Positions 21,001 through 36,000 of a stretch of DNA of 64,000 bases are shown here, piece by piece. The DNA is taken from assembly GCA_963662315.1 (NCBI GenBank), contig OY759353.1:3744001-3808000 (forward strand), in the 5' to 3' direction. This DNA is from Geopsychrobacteraceae bacterium (lineage in GTDB: Bacteria > Desulfobacterota > Desulfuromonadia > Desulfuromonadales > Geopsychrobacteraceae). The stretch's first letter is position 1; each line of letters opens with the position of its first letter. Made by a program: the position numbers.

Positions 21001-24000
21001 GACTGAGGGAGAGCTTCTAAAGGAGCGGTTACTTCCTGATGGCGTTGGGGGACAGGTGCGACAATATTCTGGGATTGTTTCTGCACGGGAGTTGGTGCTT
21101 TTGTATTTTTCTGTATGGTCTGGTCTTGTGCCGGTAACTGCTGACGGGTCTGTTTGGCTACCGGTATTGATGGTTGTTTGTCTGCTTTATGAATCTGGTT
21201 GATCGGATCGGAGGCCAGAATTGCAGGCTGCTCCGGCTGACGGCCGATCCACCAGCCACCCATAAGGCTCAACAGCGGAATCAGGATGCAGATAGCGATA
21301 AGAACCCCACGTTTCCGCGCCGGAAAATGGGGAATCAGGATATGTTTGCCCGCTTGCGGTGTCAGGTTGCCACTACGGTTTTCTTCTGATTTTTTAAGAG
21401 CATCAAGAATAAAGGACATCAGTTGACCTCAGTATTATCAAGGTGAGGGCCCGGAGCCTGGGTAAGATTGTTCAGATAGATAATTGTTTTGGGGCCAAGC
21501 ACCCCATCCGGGGTTAAGCCGGCTGCAAACTGAAAATGTTTCAGTGCGCCAAGGATCCCGCCAGCCAGGACCGAAGTCGTTTCCTGCCCTGCGTAGTGTC
21601 CGGTTGCCGTAAGTGTTTCTCTGAGCCATGGGATTAATGGGTTTGTTTGTCCCGGATAAACAATACCTGAGTAGTTTTGTGGTGGGTACCACAGGATCCG
21701 GTATTCGCCAAACCAACGGTTCTGCAAGGCTGCAATATTCAGGGTTCTGACATCTCCTGCGGCGCGAAATTCTGCCTTTTCGTTGTGCATGCTGGTGAGC
21801 AGCACAAAAAACTCTTTCCCTGCGTCATCATACAGCGTCAAAAGTGCCGGGCGATTAAGCGCCCGAAGACTGGCGAGGTCTTCCTGGCGGTCATAGCAGC
21901 GTAGACCCGATTCACGTGCGAAGTCACATGGAGTCAGGGATGAATTGCGGTAATTCAGTCCCCACATGGCGGCCAGTTCAGTAAATGCGCTGTCTCGGGT
22001 GTGGCCAAAAGCAAAGTCTGAAGGCCAGGTGAGGATTTCCTGAACCCTCTGCTGAACGGGTTGTGCTTCGCCCGCTTCCTGATCTTTGTTTATGAAGTAT
22101 TTGGCTGGTTCCGATGATTGCTCTGGCGCTGTCTCTACGGTTACTTCAGTGGAGGCCCCTTTTGTAACGGTTGTTGTTAACAGTTGGTAAGATAATCCGG
22201 AAATAATAATAAAGCTGATCAGGGTTGCGAAAATCCAGGGGACGCTTTGTTTACGTCCGGTCCGGTCAAAAATCTCAGCGCACGCCTGACGGACTATGGC
22301 GGGGGTGACCTGGCGTTGCTGCCTGGTGTAGGCCCCTAATAGAGAACGATCGCAAATCAGATTGATCAGGCGCGGAATGCCAAGACTGCGGTTATGAATC
22401 AATCTGATTGCTCGTGGTGTGAAGCAATTTTCATGACTGCCGGCCACCTGAAGGCGGTGAGCTATATAACCCCTGATTTCCTGTTTGTCCAGCGGGCCAA
22501 GGTGATAACGCGCGGTTATCCGTTGGGCCAGTTGCCGCAACTGCGGGCGGTTGATCATGTCACGCAGCTCGGGTTGGCCCAGCAGAATAATCTGCAGTAA
22601 TTTGCGCTTGTCTGTTTCCAGGTTGGTCAACAGCCGCAGTTGCTCCAGAACATCGATGGACAGATTCTGGGCTTCATCGATCAGCAATACCGTTTTACGC
22701 CCTTGGGCATTAGTCTTCAGAAGGTGCTGGTTGATGGTGTCGACCAGGAGCTTGGTCGAATTCGATCCGCTGTGACCGATATGCAACTCATCACAGATGG
22801 TCTGCAGCAGTTCAATAACGCTGATCTTCGGGTTCAGGACAAAAGCCAGGTCGATTTCGGGAGGGATTCTGGTGAACAGGCTTTTACAGATGGTGGTTTT
22901 GCCGGTTCCGACCTCGCCGGTCAGCAGGACAAAGCCGCCATCAGTCTGCAAACCGTAAAGCAAGTGTGCCAGCGCTTCCCGGTGGCTTTCACTCATGTAG
23001 AGAAAACCGGGGTCAGGGGCAATGGAAAAAGGCTTTTCTGTTAGTCCAAAGTAGTCAGTATACATGGGTCCTTGATTTGTTCTGCCAAATTGGCTGGTTC
23101 TTTCGCTCTACTTCGCCTGAAGTCTATCAAGCATACCTGCCTCGTCACCGAAAAAAAAGCCTGATATTTAAAGATACTGTACGGGTAACCAGATCTCGCA
23201 TAAAACAGCATTCTTATAATGCTTATGATATGTTTTAATTTCTACGTATATATATTGCAATATTTAAAATATAGATATTTGGAATAACTATATAAATAAT
23301 AAATTCAATAGTTTAATTTCTGACTGTTTTGCTCAGGCAAAAATTGTTTGAAAATATCGAAAAAAATCCTTGATCTGTGGCCAGCTGTTCAGTAGTTTTC
23401 CGGTAAATATGTGATAAAAAGAAAGCTCATTCTTAGCATGATTGGCCGTTAGTCTTGCGAGCTTTACAGTACATGTTGTGCGCTGTTGGAGAGGTCTGTA
23501 CATCCTTACTAACCAAAGGAGGTTATATGTCTCAAAAGCTAAAACGAGGTTATCGAAAGCTGGGTTGGCAGGTTCTGGCCGTATTGGCAATTGCTCTGCT
23601 TCTTTGGGGCTGTGGTGGAGGAGGAGGAAGTAGTTATGATGAGCCGACGTCTACTCAAACGGCAACGCCACTGATTGAAGCCGCAACTTTGATGGACTGG
23701 TCCAAAGACGGGCTGGTGAATGATGATGGTTTTGAAAACGTCAGAATCCTGCAGGTCGGGACGAGTGACGAATATAATGCTGGCCATGTGCCGGGGGCAT
23801 ACCTCTGGAACAGCAGTTCGGAACTGGTTATGGCCAGTCGCTTGGACGGATTGGCTTTTGAGCCCACCAGTACGGTCCCCGAAGGTGCGATTCTGGATGC
23901 CATGCTGCAGCGCAGTGGTGTCGATTGTGACACGACTATTGTTATCAGTTACCCTTCAACCAAGAATATCTATTATGCCGCGCGGGCCTATTTTACCCTT

Positions 24001-33000: not shown

Positions 33001-36000
33001 ATGTGTGACAGTTGTCATAACGATGCCCGGCGCTATTTACTTGAAGCCCCTGAAGACAGAATTTATCGTATTGATCTTGACGGTCTTGGTCTGTCGTCGT
33101 TCTGGAACCAGCAGGGGCAGACCCTGATTAATGGATCGTTTGTCAGTTCTGAACAATTTAGCGAACTCACCAAAAAGGATGCGGCCTACACCAGGGCGTA
33201 TGTGGAACGATGGCAGAAACTGATCGGTCACGGCGACGCTTCATCAGAGTGATGGCTCTGATCGGTGCTTCGGGAGTGTTTTTGTGGCGCTTCCTGGTGC
33301 CCCGCCCCAAGGTTCAGGGGCGTGAACTGCTGGAAATTAAGCGTGATGAAGTCCCGCTGCGCGGCGCCTTGGTCTATAAACGTGCCCGTGTGGTTGTGAT
33401 CAGAAGCGAACAGGAGATCTATGCCTTAAGCCTGGTTTGCCCACATCTGGGATGTACCGTCAACGTGACGGCAGAACAATTGGTCTGTCCTTGCCATGGC
33501 AGCGCCTTTGACCGGGAAGGAAATGTCCTGAAAGGACCATCGCCTAAACCACTGCAGCGTCTTGAAGTGAGGGAACGTGGCGATAAACTGGTGGTGCTGG
33601 TATGAAAAGCGAAGATGACTTTGTCAAAGAATTTGTCAAGCACCTGTTCCCGCGGGTGGTGTTGAAGCGCAATCTGACGCTGTCTTATACCTTCTGCCTG
33701 GGAGGTCTTGCTTTTACGGCCATGCTGGTATTAATCGTTTCCGGTATTCTGCTGATGTTCCACTATCAGCCAGATACCGACCGCGCCTTTCTGTCTATTC
33801 TCTATATCGAAAACGACGTGCCAGGGGGGTGGTATATCCGTAACCTGCACCGATTGTCTGCCAACTTTTTCCTGGTTCTGATCTTTCTCCATACACTGCG
33901 GGTGCTGTTGACCGGAGCCTATCGCAAACCGCGTGAGCTGAACTGGGTGATCGGTTTTGGCCTGTTGTGCCTGGCCCTGTTCGAAGGGTATACCGGTTAT
34001 CTGTTACCCATGGATCAACTGGCGCTGTGGGCTACCCAGACGGGCATGAACCTGCTGGCAACGCTTCCATTTGGTGAATTGTTGCGCAGCTTTCTGGTAC
34101 CTGATGATGTCGGCCAGCCCATGTCGCTGATCCGCTTTTACGTGCTGCACATTGCTGTACTTCCGGTGACCATGTTGATCCTGTGCATGCTGCACTTTTA
34201 TCGCATCCGCAAAGACAAAGGAGTTTTGCCATACCTATGAACGACTATGTCAAATCCTCCCCTTATTTTTTCCGGATCATCAAGATTTCCTTTGCCCTGC
34301 TTGTGGTGATTTTGCTGCTGCTGGCCTTTTTCATCGATGCTCCCCTGCAGGGCCCTGCTGATATCAGCCGGGTGCCGAATCCGTCCAAGTCCGCCTGGTT
34401 TTTGATGTGGACCCAGGAGCTGGTCAGCTACTCGAGTCTGATGGTTTATTTGATCCTTGCTATCGGTTTACTGTTTCTCTGCTTGCCCTGGTTGCCTGTG
34501 AGTAAAACGGCAGAGGCGGCCAGCTGGTTTAGCCGGGAGCAGAAAAGTGTCAATATTATTGTCGTACTGACTTTTGTGGCGATTGTGCTGCTGACGGTCA
34601 TCGCAGTTTATTTTCGGGGCGAAAATTGGGCGCTCGTATTCTGATTATAGCGGCTCTCTGGCTTGTTATTGCCGCTACGACAGGCGCACAAGAGCGCAAT
34701 GACTGCCTTGCCTGCCATCCTGTCCATTATGTTGAACAGGGGCGCTGTGTCACCTGCCATCGCGGCTTTGCCGGGACCAGGCGCATCAACATCGCTCATG
34801 AGGGGTTGATTGCCGGGCGCTTTGCCGCTTTTACGCTAGCCGGGAGCGAGGTTGTCGAAGAAGGGACGCAACTGCTGAAACAGTACGCCTGTCGACGCTG
34901 TCACATCAGTCAGGACCTGGGCAATCGTCTGGCTGCAAATCTTGACCTGTCCCAGCAGCAGAGAACCCCTGAAGAGTTGGATGAGAGTATTCGCAATCCG
35001 GTCCTTTTTATGCCGCAGTTTCATTTTTATGCAAAACAGCGCATCGCTCTGGTCAACGCGATACTGTGGGGGGGACGTCAGGTGGAGATTCCCGAACAGG
35101 AGCCGCCCCTGGTGGTTCATTTTGAAGGGGAGACAACAACCCGGGAATTTGCTTTTGAGAAGTATTGCGGCAAATGCCACCGTGCGCTGACCGAAAAATA
35201 CGGTGGTTTGGGTGCAAGCCTGACCGGGCCCAACTTGTCGGGCCTGTTCAGCGAGTTTTATCCGACCAGCTTCGGTGAGGATAACCAACCCTGGACCCCT
35301 GAGAACCTCAAGAAATGGATCAAAAATCCGCGCAGCGTCAACAACTTTGCCCGTATGCCGCCGCTGGTGGTTAATGATGCTGAAATTGACCGCATTACTC
35401 AGGAATTGCAGGTCAAGGCGTCAACTCCTGCGGTGCGGGCCGCTCACCTGCAGTAGCTCTATTCTCTGGTCTCTCCTCCCCATGCCTCCAGGCCCCAGGA
35501 TCTGAATCGCGGTAACCATGAAGAAGGAGTCTTTGGTGTCGTGGGTTGTGCAGGTCCTTTTTTGTTCGTTTGTAGCGTTTTTCGTGTGTCCTTTTGCGCA
35601 GGAGGAAATTCGACCGCCTCTGCTGTGGAATCCGTGTTGACTGTTGCTTGCAAAGACGCTTTGGGTTTTTCAGTTGTGGCTGGCAGCGTGGGGCTGTCAT
35701 CAGTACTGATTGGTTCCGAGCAAGTTGTCAATGTTGCAAATATTTCACGGATGGCGAAAGCGGGATCAGGCTTGTCCTCGCCCTGAGGAAACACGTAATC
35801 CACCTGGTTTATGGGGGCGTTTGATCTAGAGGGATAAAAGTCCAGGTGCAGGCGCCGTAATCTTTGGACCCTTTGACTCTCCTGGGTTAAATCTTCTCTC
35901 ACCTCAGGGGTGTAAGTGATAAGCAAGTCCGGCTGAGCAGGGTTTTCTGGACTGGTTATGCCCAGGGAAGTTAATTCCTGACGAATCAGTTCGCCGAAAT

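Follow-up and report, generated by a model that had tools for sequence, protein, structure and literature searches.

The slot between extJ and extM in the ext locus of Geobacter holds extKL, the mccsep genes (PMC5877670). The ext locus of the Geopsychrobacteraceae bacterium described here carries three different genes in that place, raising the question of what reaction they serve. Within the window, the whole 64,000-nucleotide stretch of DNA analyzed, all 12 open reading frames (ORFs) of the locus were confirmed on the + strand, and the ORFs together with NCBIfam and Pfam matches bore out the survey's finding that a chaperone, a Tat-exported 746-aa molybdenum (Mo) enzyme, and its 4x[4Fe-4S] partner (hereafter the trio) lie between extJ and extM. 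The features of the locus are as follows.

23527..24792, + strand: extH, rhodanese-like lipoprotein (NF040901, 322 bits, cut-off 200; Pfam Rhodanese)
24866..25990, + strand: extI, OprO/P-type outer-membrane anion porin (NF040900, 577 bits, cut-off 150; Pfam Porin_O_P, E 1.6e-11); the ORF opens at 24821, and the Met at 24866 is the likely start
26016..26041, + strand: terminator-like hairpin and U-run in the extI/extJ gap (10-bp stem, then TTTTTT; -16.6 kcal/mol, z -3.55), from a terminator scan that overall was not above chance (14.5 sites expected, 12 found)
26073..26303, + strand: extJ, small exported protein (NF040942, 73.5 bits, cut-off 52.5)
26333..26938, + strand: MolyC-like chaperone of the TorD/DmsD family (REMP; Pfam Nitrate_red_del, E 5e-20)
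26928..29168, + strand: MolyA-like/PsrA-like Mo catalytic subunit, 746 aa (Molybdop_Fe4S4, Molybdopterin, and Molydop_binding), overlapping the chaperone gene by 11 nt
29210..30025, + strand: MolyB-like/PsrB-like 4x[4Fe-4S] (FeS) subunit, 271 aa, no signal peptide
30029..30093, + strand: long perfect hairpin directly 3' of the FeS gene (20-bp inner stem; -33.5 kcal/mol, z -8.5)
30228..32069, + strand: extM, 12-haem c-type cytochrome (NF040943, 1057 bits, cut-off 800; 12 CXXCH motifs)
31972..33252, + strand: extN, multihaem cytochrome with nine CXXCH motifs (NF040967, 636 bits, cut-off 200); the ORF opens at 31972, with the likely start near 32026
33210..33605, + strand: extO, Rieske [2Fe-2S] protein (Pfam Rieske only, E 1.6e-14; named after PMC5877670)
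33602..34240, + strand: extP, cytochrome b6-like (NF040969, 238.5 bits, under the cut-off of 290; Pfam Cytochrome_B, E 8e-42)
34183..34644, + strand: extQ, membrane subunit (NF040970, 204 bits, cut-off 150; likely start 34237)
34626..35456, + strand: extS, 4-haem cytochrome c lipoprotein (NF040971, 356 bits, cut-off 100; four CXXCH motifs)

The trio had been described as inserted into the operon, but because it fills the place of mccsep at a syntenic locus, it replaces mccsep (extKL) between extJ and extM. One genome of the same genus (G157) has the order ExtH-I-J-MccSep-ExtM..S, and its MccSep, with five CXXCH motifs and a Sec at position 325 in the motif GHSIPDGUPTPNR, matches the published protein. 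Where G157 has MccSep, five genomes (G000, G153, G154, G156, and G158) have the trio, and a downstream orf229, a sigma-54 activator, and ClpB are common to all six loci; one genome of the genus has neither Mo enzyme nor MccSep. A tblastn search of the present genome (E<=1e-3) found no MccSep. The proposal that the trio supplies the missing catalytic reductase thus stands only insofar as a Mo enzyme does sit in the ext catalytic position; nothing was missing, as MccSep/ExtKL is the known ext enzyme.

Across the order, 63 of 233 genomes contain ExtI above the family cut-off (73 matches), with MccSep encoded within 3 kb downstream in 32 of the 73 and a PsrA-like Mo subunit in nine, five of the present type and four of a second type. 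Eleven of these 63 genomes lack MccSep; nine of them have the slot filled by a Mo enzyme, and the remaining two give partial ExtI matches only. Repeating the survey over the 233 genomes returned the same 15 matches at E<=1e-150, including 12 orthologues at 69–100% identity and an orthologue in five of the seven genomes of the genus. With flanks widened to 5–9 kb, ExtI/ExtJ upstream and ExtM downstream still accompany the Mo gene in all four other loci of the genus and in none of the seven outside it, and the enzyme is also linked to ExtH/I/J in lineages L088 and L062. The three further matches (G167, G121, and G162), at 40–42% identity, and one added genome (G120) have a PsrABC-type cluster after ExtH-ExtI-ExtJ and before ExtM..S. 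This second ext-slot Mo enzyme is independent of the trio: it shares the same active-site residues but is only 37–42% identical to the trio Mo subunit and forms a separate clade, and it comes with PsrB and an NrfD/PsrC anchor, whereas the trio has no anchor. No chaperone adjacent to it was found by tblastn with the chaperone of this window as query.

The enzyme displaced from the slot, MccSep, is a pentahaem polysulfide reductase containing selenocysteine; a 2026 study showed that S0 respiration requires it. According to that study (PMC13510729), it prefers polysulfide to selenite (K0.5 of 0.19 versus 0.99 mM), turns over selenite more poorly (Vmax of 59 versus 83 μmol/min/mg), and is inactive on selenate, thiosulfate, tetrathionate, and sulfite. 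We lean, with slightly more belief than doubt, toward the trio enzyme being a Mo-dependent reductase of polysulfide/sulfane sulfur that takes the role of MccSep. We count for this reading the equivalence of the slot, the replacement within the genus, the complementarity of the two enzymes, the activity of MccSep, the kinship with PsrA/PsrB, the MOLY architecture described below, and the thiol/sulfur modules that form other ExtH-ExtI contexts (rhodanese, FmdE, and TauE in L037; thioredoxin and DsbD/CcdA in L049).

The flanking Ext proteins suggest how such a reductase might work. The ExtH sequence shows a lipobox (LWGC, Cys29), a CVSGMS loop of the rhodanese type that contains Cys304, and a tail rich in Gly and Ser whose last residue is Cys421, and this terminal Cys is present in all 31 tblastn rows that match beyond query residue 400. 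ExtJ consists of a signal peptide followed by ≈53 aa; it has a Lys-rich arm, and its C-terminal Gly-Cys (G75 and C76) is kept by all 29 homologues that were aligned. The locus had been cast as a porin-cytochrome conduit, but ExtI is an OprO/P-type anion porin, and ext has been described as not analogous to pcc (PMC5877670). Polysulfide or a related chalcogen anion would cross the outer membrane through ExtI, and its sulfane sulfur could be bound and passed on by lipoprotein ExtH, through Cys304 and a swinging C-terminal Cys, and by periplasmic ExtJ through its Gly-Cys. MolyA, as its family and slot suggest, would then release sulfide at a Cys182-ligated Mo-bisPGD. The four FeS clusters of MolyB would receive their electrons from menaquinol, carried there by ExtOPQ, a Rieske/cytochrome b unit, and by the ExtS/N/M haem proteins.

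Much of this context would also suit a respiratory selenite reductase, in which a MOLY-type enzyme would do the work of Srr, with selenite entering via ExtI, ExtH/ExtJ thiols binding it, and the Mo enzyme forming Se(0). The reaction would be step two of selenate respiration in a genus that the survey describes as selenate-respiring. With a potential far above that of polysulfide/sulfide, the Se(IV)/Se(0) couple would be a good match for electrons that arrive by way of a Rieske center. SrrA and the trio enzyme share the PsrA/PhsA/SrrA lineage, the replaced MccSep itself reduces selenite in the assays cited above, and the replacement is fixed in five of the seven genomes of one genus; in addition, an extI deletion mutant reduces less selenite and tellurite (PMC5877670). 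We nevertheless consider a selenite reductase unlikely: close relatives of the trio are spread over Desulfobulbales known for sulfur disproportionation, none of the carriers named among these relatives is a known selenium respirer, MccSep prefers polysulfide, and one genome of the genus keeps MccSep while another has neither enzyme.

Several observations count against the trio being a stand-in for MccSep. MccSep is retained in seven of the 12 genomes with a 69–100% identical orthologue (G094, G057, G061, G064, G066, G067, and G068), and in two MAG loci (L077 and L080) both enzymes occur, ≈4 kb apart, so simple redundancy does not describe the pair. The present genome also carries a canonical PsrABC-like cluster. 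Finally, the hairpin at 30029..30093, which none of 200 shuffles equaled in stability, splits the FeS gene from extM, so that the trio may not be co-transcribed with the cytochrome genes. This hairpin is possibly a transcript end or a processing site ahead of extM, and the equivalent place in G158, after its FeS gene, is taken by a canonical terminator.

The Mo subunit begins with a Tat signal motif (TRRRFLQS; cleavage about VQA/DD). Further on come four FS0 cysteines (C55/C58/C62/C90) and Cys182, a putative Mo ligand; all 58 sequences compared keep these cysteines. The enzyme had been read as a selenium-oxyanion (selenate/selenite) reductase of a further type, beyond SerABC, SrdBCA, and YnfEF. 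That claim overlooked both SrrABC, a selenite reductase of the PsrA/PhsA/SrrA lineage, and the published MOLY cluster, which has the architecture of the trio. All that speaks for selenate is that databases call the operon a "selenite/tellurite reduction operon", together with the presumed physiology of the genus. The YnfE model (133 bits, cut-off 1675), the type-II, Ser-like DMSO-reductase family (152, cut-off 985), and the TtrA model, which represents the lineage holding SrdA (70, cut-off 1750), match at the superfamily level only. The substrates known for the PsrA lineage are S(0/-I), thiosulfate, and selenite, MccSep shows no selenate activity, and the genome has other, unassigned Mo enzymes, such as a DmsD-DmsABC-like cluster of a "DMSO/selenate family" subfamily found in three of the seven genus genomes. 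A dissimilatory selenate reductase is almost certainly the wrong assignment.

The best NCBIfam match is instead PhsA, at 417 bits, which might point to reduction of other sulfur species (thiosulfate, tetrathionate, or sulfite-derived), as by PhsABC or the Shewanella Psr homologue, which reduces thiosulfate and tetrathionate (PMC12949373). The PhsA score is, however, well below its cut-off of 694, and PsrA, PhsA, and SrrA are indistinguishable by sequence or phylogeny (PMC12949373), a point that weighs against our preferred polysulfide reading as well. So does evidence from D. thermophilus, whose MolyA, assigned no role by the authors, is more abundant under sulfite/H2 than under thiosulfate disproportionation, with detection confined to sulfite/H2 (PMC13490349); this favors other sulfur species, as does a tetrathionate-reductase cluster adjoining an OprO/P-like porin in that organism (PMC13490349). 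Set against them are the inactivity of MccSep on thiosulfate, tetrathionate, and sulfite, and a rhodanese and C-terminal-Cys proteins that would suit sulfane sulfur more than oxyanions. We regard this alternative as distinctly improbable.

The chaperone, Mo, and FeS genes form a self-contained cassette: of 79 related loci, 76 have the chaperone directly beside the Mo gene and 74 have the FeS subunit there. Carriers are mostly Desulfobulbales, overwhelmingly so for relatives at 55–75% identity. By gene architecture (MolyC chaperone, Tat-exported MolyA, MolyB, no anchor), the trio would class as a MOLY-type cassette. The MOLY cluster (MolyC/A/B) of sulfur-disproportionating Desulfobacterota, published but uncharacterized, is reported from 90% of S0 disproportionators, and a role in S0 reduction has been hypothesized for it (Allioux et al. 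2022, PMC9676032; Novak et al. 2026, PMC12998232). Beyond a few lineages, the neighbors of the trio are housekeeping genes, and an ExtI-family porin was found in only one of five MOLY-bearing Desulfobulbales genomes tested; both observations count against a polysulfide reductase tied to ext. The MOLY authors also cite an earlier proposal that the cluster oxidizes sulfide to S0, and highly expressed rhodanese and Mo-oxidoreductase operons of D. alkaliphilus have been discussed for sulfide oxidation. An oxidative trio, converting sulfide or polysulfide to S0 and passing electrons into the Ext cytochromes as proposed for related Desulfurivibrio enzymes, is very unlikely here, in a slot that belongs to a reductase needed for S0 respiration and a locus with no sign of an oxidative pathway.

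Among known systems, SrrABC, the respiratory selenite reductase of Bacillus selenitireducens, shares by description the PsrA/PhsA/SrrA lineage and a periplasmic Cys-ligated Mo site, but is Gram-positive and membrane-anchored, unlike the trio. Its operon reportedly holds rhodanese genes. T. thermophilus PsrABC (2VPW-2VPZ) is the closest solved relative of both subunits: the Mo subunit matches PsrA (2VPW_A; phmmer E 4e-132; Foldseek TM 0.85, 34% identity), with C182, H154, and R339 aligning with PsrA Cys173, His145, and Arg332, which we take to be functional residues. The FeS subunit, with 16 Cys in four ferredoxin-type groups, matches PsrB (2VPW_B, E 1.5e-29) over residues 1-189 only; relative to PsrB, it has a 24-aa insertion and a C-terminal extension of ≈80 aa ending in a conserved Gly-rich hydrophobic helix, with a motif (RRxxxA...GxxGxxG) at least 70% conserved over 68 orthologues. 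The trio lacks the quinol-oxidizing PsrC/NrfD anchor, and cytochromes presumably supply its electrons. A rhodanese is encoded in its locus, and Wolinella succinogenes PsrABC works with the rhodanese-like Sud protein.

Compared with G. sulfurreducens extHIJKLMNOPQS, the present locus has ExtH, I, J, M, N, O, P, Q, and S in the same order, with a Cys-ligated Mo-bisPGD enzyme, FeS subunit, and chaperone in place of MccSep (ExtKL, GSU2937-2936) (PMC5877670; PMC13510729). The MOLY cluster has the same three genes as the trio (TorD/DmsD REMP, Tat-signal Mo subunit, and 4x[4Fe-4S] subunit), likewise anchorless, and the same carriers (Desulfocapsa, Desulfurivibrio, Desulfogranum, and Desulfobulbus); in Desulfogranum japonicum, the chaperone beside a 65%-identical orthologue is in the published MolyC alignment. 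Descriptions of MOLY loci in the literature give them no porin, rhodanese, or cytochrome partners, whereas the trio lies inside an ext locus, in a different order of bacteria. A MOLY-type enzyme in the slot of polysulfide-reducing MccSep hints at the role of this little-understood family, and the hybrid locus makes MOLY function testable.

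The locus spans window positions 23527-35456 and comprises 12 genes in a single orientation. Searches with NCBIfam and Pfam recovered ExtH, ExtI, ExtJ, ExtM, ExtN, ExtO, ExtP, ExtQ, and ExtS, all in the canonical order, which for Geobacter sulfurreducens is reported as extH-I-J-KL-M-N-O-P-Q-S (PMC5877670). The curated NCBIfam cut-offs are exceeded by ExtH, ExtI, ExtJ, ExtM, ExtN, ExtQ, and ExtS, and ExtP falls slightly below its own (238.5 versus 290). Pfam matches in the locus are Rhodanese, Porin_O_P, Rieske, and Cytochrome_B, with ExtI identified as an OprO/P-family anion porin. 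ExtS, ExtN, and ExtM contain 4, 9, and 12 CXXCH motifs, respectively, giving 25 in total alongside the Rieske/cytochrome-b complex. The NCBIfam model NF040968, described as the iron-sulfur subunit ExtO, matches the nine-haem cytochrome at 31972-33252 with 637 bits (versus 636 for NF040967, ExtN), and the Rieske protein at 33210-33605 has no Ext-specific NCBIfam match; the name of NF040968 looks misassigned. ExtH is a tandem duplication within one ORF of ≈810-830 residues in four genomes of the genus, G158 (L032:31-2517), G153, G156, and G157, and in G114, and a single 421-residue protein in the window and in G154. The window and G154 also have the most divergent ExtI within the genus (577-583 bits versus 652-679).

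Three genes, oriented like the rest of the locus, lie between extJ and extM, and this placement, together with the accompanying survey counts, was reproduced:

26333-26938, chaperone with a Nitrate_red_del domain, overlapping the next gene by 11 nt
26928-29168, molybdenum (Mo) subunit of 746 residues with Molybdop_Fe4S4, Molybdopterin, and Molydop_binding domains and an N-terminal twin-arginine motif, TRRRFLQS (residues 6-13)
29210-30025, iron-sulfur (FeS) protein of 271 residues with four Cys groups, N terminus MSQYGMIIDLNKC, and no signal peptide

The nearest solved structure to the Mo subunit is Thermus thermophilus PsrA (phmmer E 4e-132, residues 50-737), and its best NCBIfam model is PhsA. 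An AlphaFold model based on a 58-sequence alignment (pLDDT 89.6) matches PsrA with a TM score of 0.85 and 34% identity, followed by acetylene hydratase (24%) and ArrA (21%); a model from a 6-sequence alignment was unusable (pLDDT 47.5). All 58 relatives compared retain C55, C58, C62, C90, and C182, and C182, H154, and R339 align with PsrA Cys173, His145, and Arg332, residues whose roles are reported from the 2008 structure of PsrA. Over residues 1-189, the FeS subunit comes closest to PsrB; it also carries an extra C-terminal tail whose end, a Gly-rich hydrophobic helix, shows conservation among 68 orthologues. This tail is not long enough to be called a transmembrane anchor. No NrfD, DmsC, or cytochrome-b gene is found between 26333 and 30228.

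What occupies this position elsewhere is informative. The genes extK and extL are reported to be one gene, mccsep, whose product, MccSep, is a pentahaem cytochrome with one selenocysteine that acts as a polysulfide reductase and is essential for respiration of elemental sulfur (PMC13510729). We fetched 20 loci of the order and mapped the proteins of the window onto them. In G157, a member of the same genus, and in G114 and G094, ExtH-ExtI-ExtJ is followed by an ORF of ≈1.35 kb and then by ExtM through ExtS. This ORF encodes five CXXCH motifs and has one in-frame TGA within the motif GHSIPDGUPTPNR; in G157, both the motif and the selenocysteine, at position 325, agree with the MccSep of PMC13510729. 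The three-gene cassette occupies exactly the place of MccSep in this genome and in G153, G154, G156, and G158, and the six genus loci have common downstream genes encoding a 229-residue protein, a sigma-54 activator, and ClpB. The six genus loci thus carry either MccSep or the trio in one place with common downstream genes, and the trio is therefore a replacement of mccsep at one syntenic locus. The survey's finding had described the trio as inserted into the ext operon, a description that gives way to replacement because the slot elsewhere holds mccsep. Between the cassette and extM, the junction DNA shows no clear homology between trio-type and MccSep-type loci.

Across the 233 genomes of the order, ExtI exceeds its cut-off in 63 genomes (73 matches), and MccSep is present in 60. 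MccSep follows 32 of the 73 ExtI matches within 3 kb on the same strand, and a PsrA-like Mo subunit follows another 9; the remaining 32 have neither enzyme after them and comprise other contexts or contig ends. Among the 11 ExtI-positive genomes that lack MccSep, 9 have a Mo enzyme in the slot and 2 have only fragmentary ExtI matches. MccSep was not detected by tblastn (E ≤ 1e-3) in the window or in this genome. The nine Mo-bearing slots divide into five with the trio and four of a second type (G120, G121, G162, and G167), in which a Mo subunit 37-42% identical to that of the trio precedes an FeS subunit and an NrfD/PsrC membrane protein, forming a full PsrABC. The ext locus emerges as a modular platform that can take at least three reductases, unrelated or only distantly related, in its catalytic slot. 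The ExtJ variant preceding the second-type slots (L045-L048) is longer, at 106-114 residues, with the same ...LQGC end. Selenocysteine in the second-type Mo enzyme was also considered and rejected because the TGA codons flagged in G162 and G120 lie outside real ORFs; all four sequences have Cys as the Mo ligand.

The trio also accompanies partial Ext gene sets. A Desulfuromonadaceae metagenome-assembled genome (MAG; L088:830-12580) has ExtH-ExtI-x-ExtJ-trio-ExtO-P-Q-S, lacking ExtM and ExtN, and a metagenomic chromosome (L062:3043-10119) has ExtI-like-x-ExtJ-trio and none of the Ext cytochromes. Both loci include a divergent LysR regulator annotated as multihaem cytochrome-associated, with moaA/moaC close by. 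Of the 12 genomes with a trio orthologue at 69-100% identity, 7 retain MccSep, and in two MAG loci MccSep lies 4 kb away from the trio, so simple redundancy does not describe the two enzymes. Loss of the selenocysteine machinery was rejected as a cause of the exchange, as SelA and SelB are above their cut-offs in all seven genus genomes.

Across related loci, the trio behaves as a cassette complete in itself. Among 79 such loci, which come from named public genomes, the chaperone gene adjoins the Mo gene in 76 and the FeS gene does so in 74, with the exceptions falling at contig ends. No further neighbour is common to more than 15 of these loci, the neighbours found being housekeeping genes, and no conserved encoded redox partner was found in the related loci examined outside ext loci. 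At 55-75% identity, nearly all carriers belong to the Desulfobulbales, including Desulfobulbus, Desulfocapsa, Desulforhopalus, Desulfopila, Desulfurivibrio, Desulfogranum japonicum, and Hydrosulfovibrio ferrireducens; no organism with a characterised enzyme was among those returned by the related-locus search. A quick maximum-likelihood tree of 89 rows, read for neither root nor transfer direction and built without Wolinella PsrA, PhsA, SrrA, or the MOLY seeds, groups the Desulfuromonadales sequences into a single 15-row clade (SH-aLRT 95) placed among Desulfobulbales rows. A Desulfobulbus MAG contig (L101:1-8001) carries the Mo and FeS genes in tandem copies (FeS, Mo, FeS, Mo, FeS), and in G067 (L040:10147-11589) the trio has a group II intron reverse transcriptase/maturase gene immediately downstream.

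This gene set is MOLY-type at the level of architecture. The MOLY cluster is described as MolyA, MolyB, and the TorD/DmsD chaperone MolyC, a periplasmic or extracellular enzyme without an anchor that is found in 90% of elemental-sulfur disproportionators and is proposed as a marker of that metabolism, with its function unproven (PMC9676032, PMC12998232). The chaperone beside the 65% orthologue of D. japonicum (L065) matches a sequence in the MolyC alignment of PMC12998232. An ExtI-family porin was detected in only one of five MOLY-bearing Desulfobulbales genomes tested, and ExtI as a general MOLY partner was rejected.

Within one genus, a MOLY-type cassette stands at a syntenic locus where an experimentally proven polysulfide reductase otherwise sits, and this context provides an independent assignment of the cassette as a candidate polysulfide/sulfane-sulfur reductase. 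On balance, we favor the trio as a candidate Mo-dependent enzyme of this kind standing in for MccSep. Substrate would be delivered via the anion porin ExtI and the thiol proteins ExtH and ExtJ. In ExtH (23527-24792), Cys29 lies in a lipobox and Cys304 in a rhodanese loop, and the Gly/Ser tail closes with a Cys that is present in all 31 tblastn rows reaching the C-terminal region. ExtJ (26073-26303) is a small exported protein with a Lys-rich arm ending in Gly-Cys, invariant in 29 of 29 homologues, and is retained regardless of which reductase comes next. Terminal-Cys arms are typical of sulfur-carrier proteins such as SoxY and DsrC, and Sud has a sulfur-carrier role for Wolinella Psr. ExtJ and ExtH together resemble a relay for sulfur (or selenium) based on thiols. 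No Pfam family matches ExtJ, and a protein atlas returned only ExtJ clusters and weak leads (0.76-0.77) to CusF/DUF1344-like small periplasmic proteins. A predicted complex of the mature Mo subunit with ExtJ gave a score of 0.01, which is no answer and evidence neither way. ExtH-ExtI also occurs with a tandem rhodanese, an FmdE-like protein, and TauE/SafE (L037:12594-19141), and with thioredoxin and a DsbD/CcdA-like protein (L049:14730-19137). Because these other contexts are also thiol/sulfur modules, they suggest a general role of ExtH-ExtI as the front end of chalcogen import. The trio enzyme itself has no quinol-oxidising subunit; electrons would be supplied by the Rieske/cytochrome-b unit ExtO/P/Q and the multihaem cytochromes ExtS, ExtN, and ExtM.

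The survey's finding had taken the trio for the missing selenate/selenite reductase, misled by the database name "selenite/tellurite reduction operon". Its selenate part is unsupported: in NCBIfam searches the Mo subunit comes nowhere near the cut-offs of the selenate-reductase models (YnfEF, SerABC, SrdBCA), scoring 133 bits against YnfE (cut-off 1675), 152 against the type-II DMSO-reductase alpha subunit (cut-off 985), and 70 against TtrA, the lineage of SrdA (cut-off 1750), and MccSep is reported to be inactive on selenate, as well as on thiosulfate, tetrathionate, and sulfite (PMC13510729). Reduction of selenite by the trio is a live alternative. The displaced enzyme turns over selenite, less efficiently than polysulfide (K0.5 of 0.99 versus 0.19 mM; PMC13510729), and an extI mutant is described as having lower selenite and tellurite reduction (PMC5877670). 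A further reading, in which the MOLY enzyme of this genus is dedicated to respiratory selenite reduction and the swap adapts the ExtH/I/J import-and-relay module and the Rieske/cytochrome-b/multihaem chain to Se(IV) reduction, seems to us unlikely. Were it true, the selenite step would complete the selenate respiration that the survey's finding ascribes to the genus, and the enzyme would be the first reductase of selenium oxyanions to draw its electrons from a bc-type complex and to be supplied through an outer-membrane porin and thiol carriers. The genome has 12 Mo-bisPGD-type matches, none reaching an NCBIfam equivalog cut-off. One belongs to a DmsD-DmsA-DmsB-DmsC-like cluster (L051; G000:C1:3513865-3518106), present in three of seven genus genomes, whose DmsA-like subunit has a Tat signal and "DMSO/selenate family" as its best subfamily; a canonical PsrABC-like cluster with an NrfD anchor lies at G000:C1:3372684-3376492 (L057).

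Downstream of the FeS gene, at 30029-30093, is a perfect 20-bp hairpin (−33.5 kcal/mol, z −8.5) that is also found in G154, and G158 has a canonical terminator at the equivalent place (L032:8093-8150). The cassette may carry its own transcript end, and from the hairpin the cytochrome genes may form a separate transcript. No sigma-54 promoter was found upstream of extH; the sole nearby -24/-12-like match (36196-36210, minus strand) faces the 229-residue ORF, in a scan that was not above chance (11 matches versus 6.2 expected), and the sigma-70 and terminator scans were likewise not above chance. After extS, at 35459-37804, this ORF, which has no Pfam family, and the divergent sigma-54 activator occur in six of six genus loci and, in more distant form (39% identity), after extS in two other genera. 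They may constitute a conserved regulatory pair of ext loci.

The assignment as a polysulfide/sulfane-sulfur reductase bears on MOLY enzymes more widely. These have been proposed as the best marker in genomes for elemental-sulfur disproportionation, with reaction, substrate, and electron partners described as unknown (PMC9676032, PMC12998232, PMC13490349), and the authors of PMC13490349 could not assign MOLY a role. The locus offers candidate partners for an anchorless MOLY enzyme, namely the porin ExtI, the rhodanese ExtH, the C-terminal-Cys protein ExtJ, and the Rieske/cytochrome-b complex. The hybrid thereby ties an enzyme of unproven function to a proven reaction and candidate partners; a G. 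sulfurreducens mccsep deletion with a sulfur-halo assay already exists (PMC13510729). The ext locus, MccSep, PsrABC, SrrABC, and MOLY are already in print. Term searches found no literature joining MOLY with MccSep, ExtKL, or ExtI, apart from two sulfur-disproportionation reports that, judged by title, appear unrelated, and none on ExtH/ExtI together with a molybdoenzyme.

Among known systems, the trio resembles MOLY in architecture. Both consist of an adjacent TorD/DmsD-type REMP, a Mo-bisPGD catalytic subunit, and a 4×[4Fe-4S] subunit; the MolyA-like subunit has a Tat signal, and the MolyB-like subunit has none. There is no transmembrane anchor subunit, and a REMP is associated instead, as described for MOLY (PMC12998232). 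The trio shares with PsrABC a PsrA-type subunit with FS0 and a Cys-ligated Mo-bisPGD and a PsrB-type subunit with four clusters, but its locus lacks the quinol-oxidising membrane subunit PsrC (NrfD family), which the second ext-slot type possesses. Likeness to SrrABC is at the level of lineage only, the catalytic subunit belonging to the PsrA/PhsA/SrrA lineage (PMC7331816, PMC10100899), the members of which are reported to be indistinguishable by sequence or phylogeny (PMC12949373). Within this lineage, the Psr homologue of Shewanella ANA-3 is reported to reduce thiosulfate and tetrathionate (PMC12949373).
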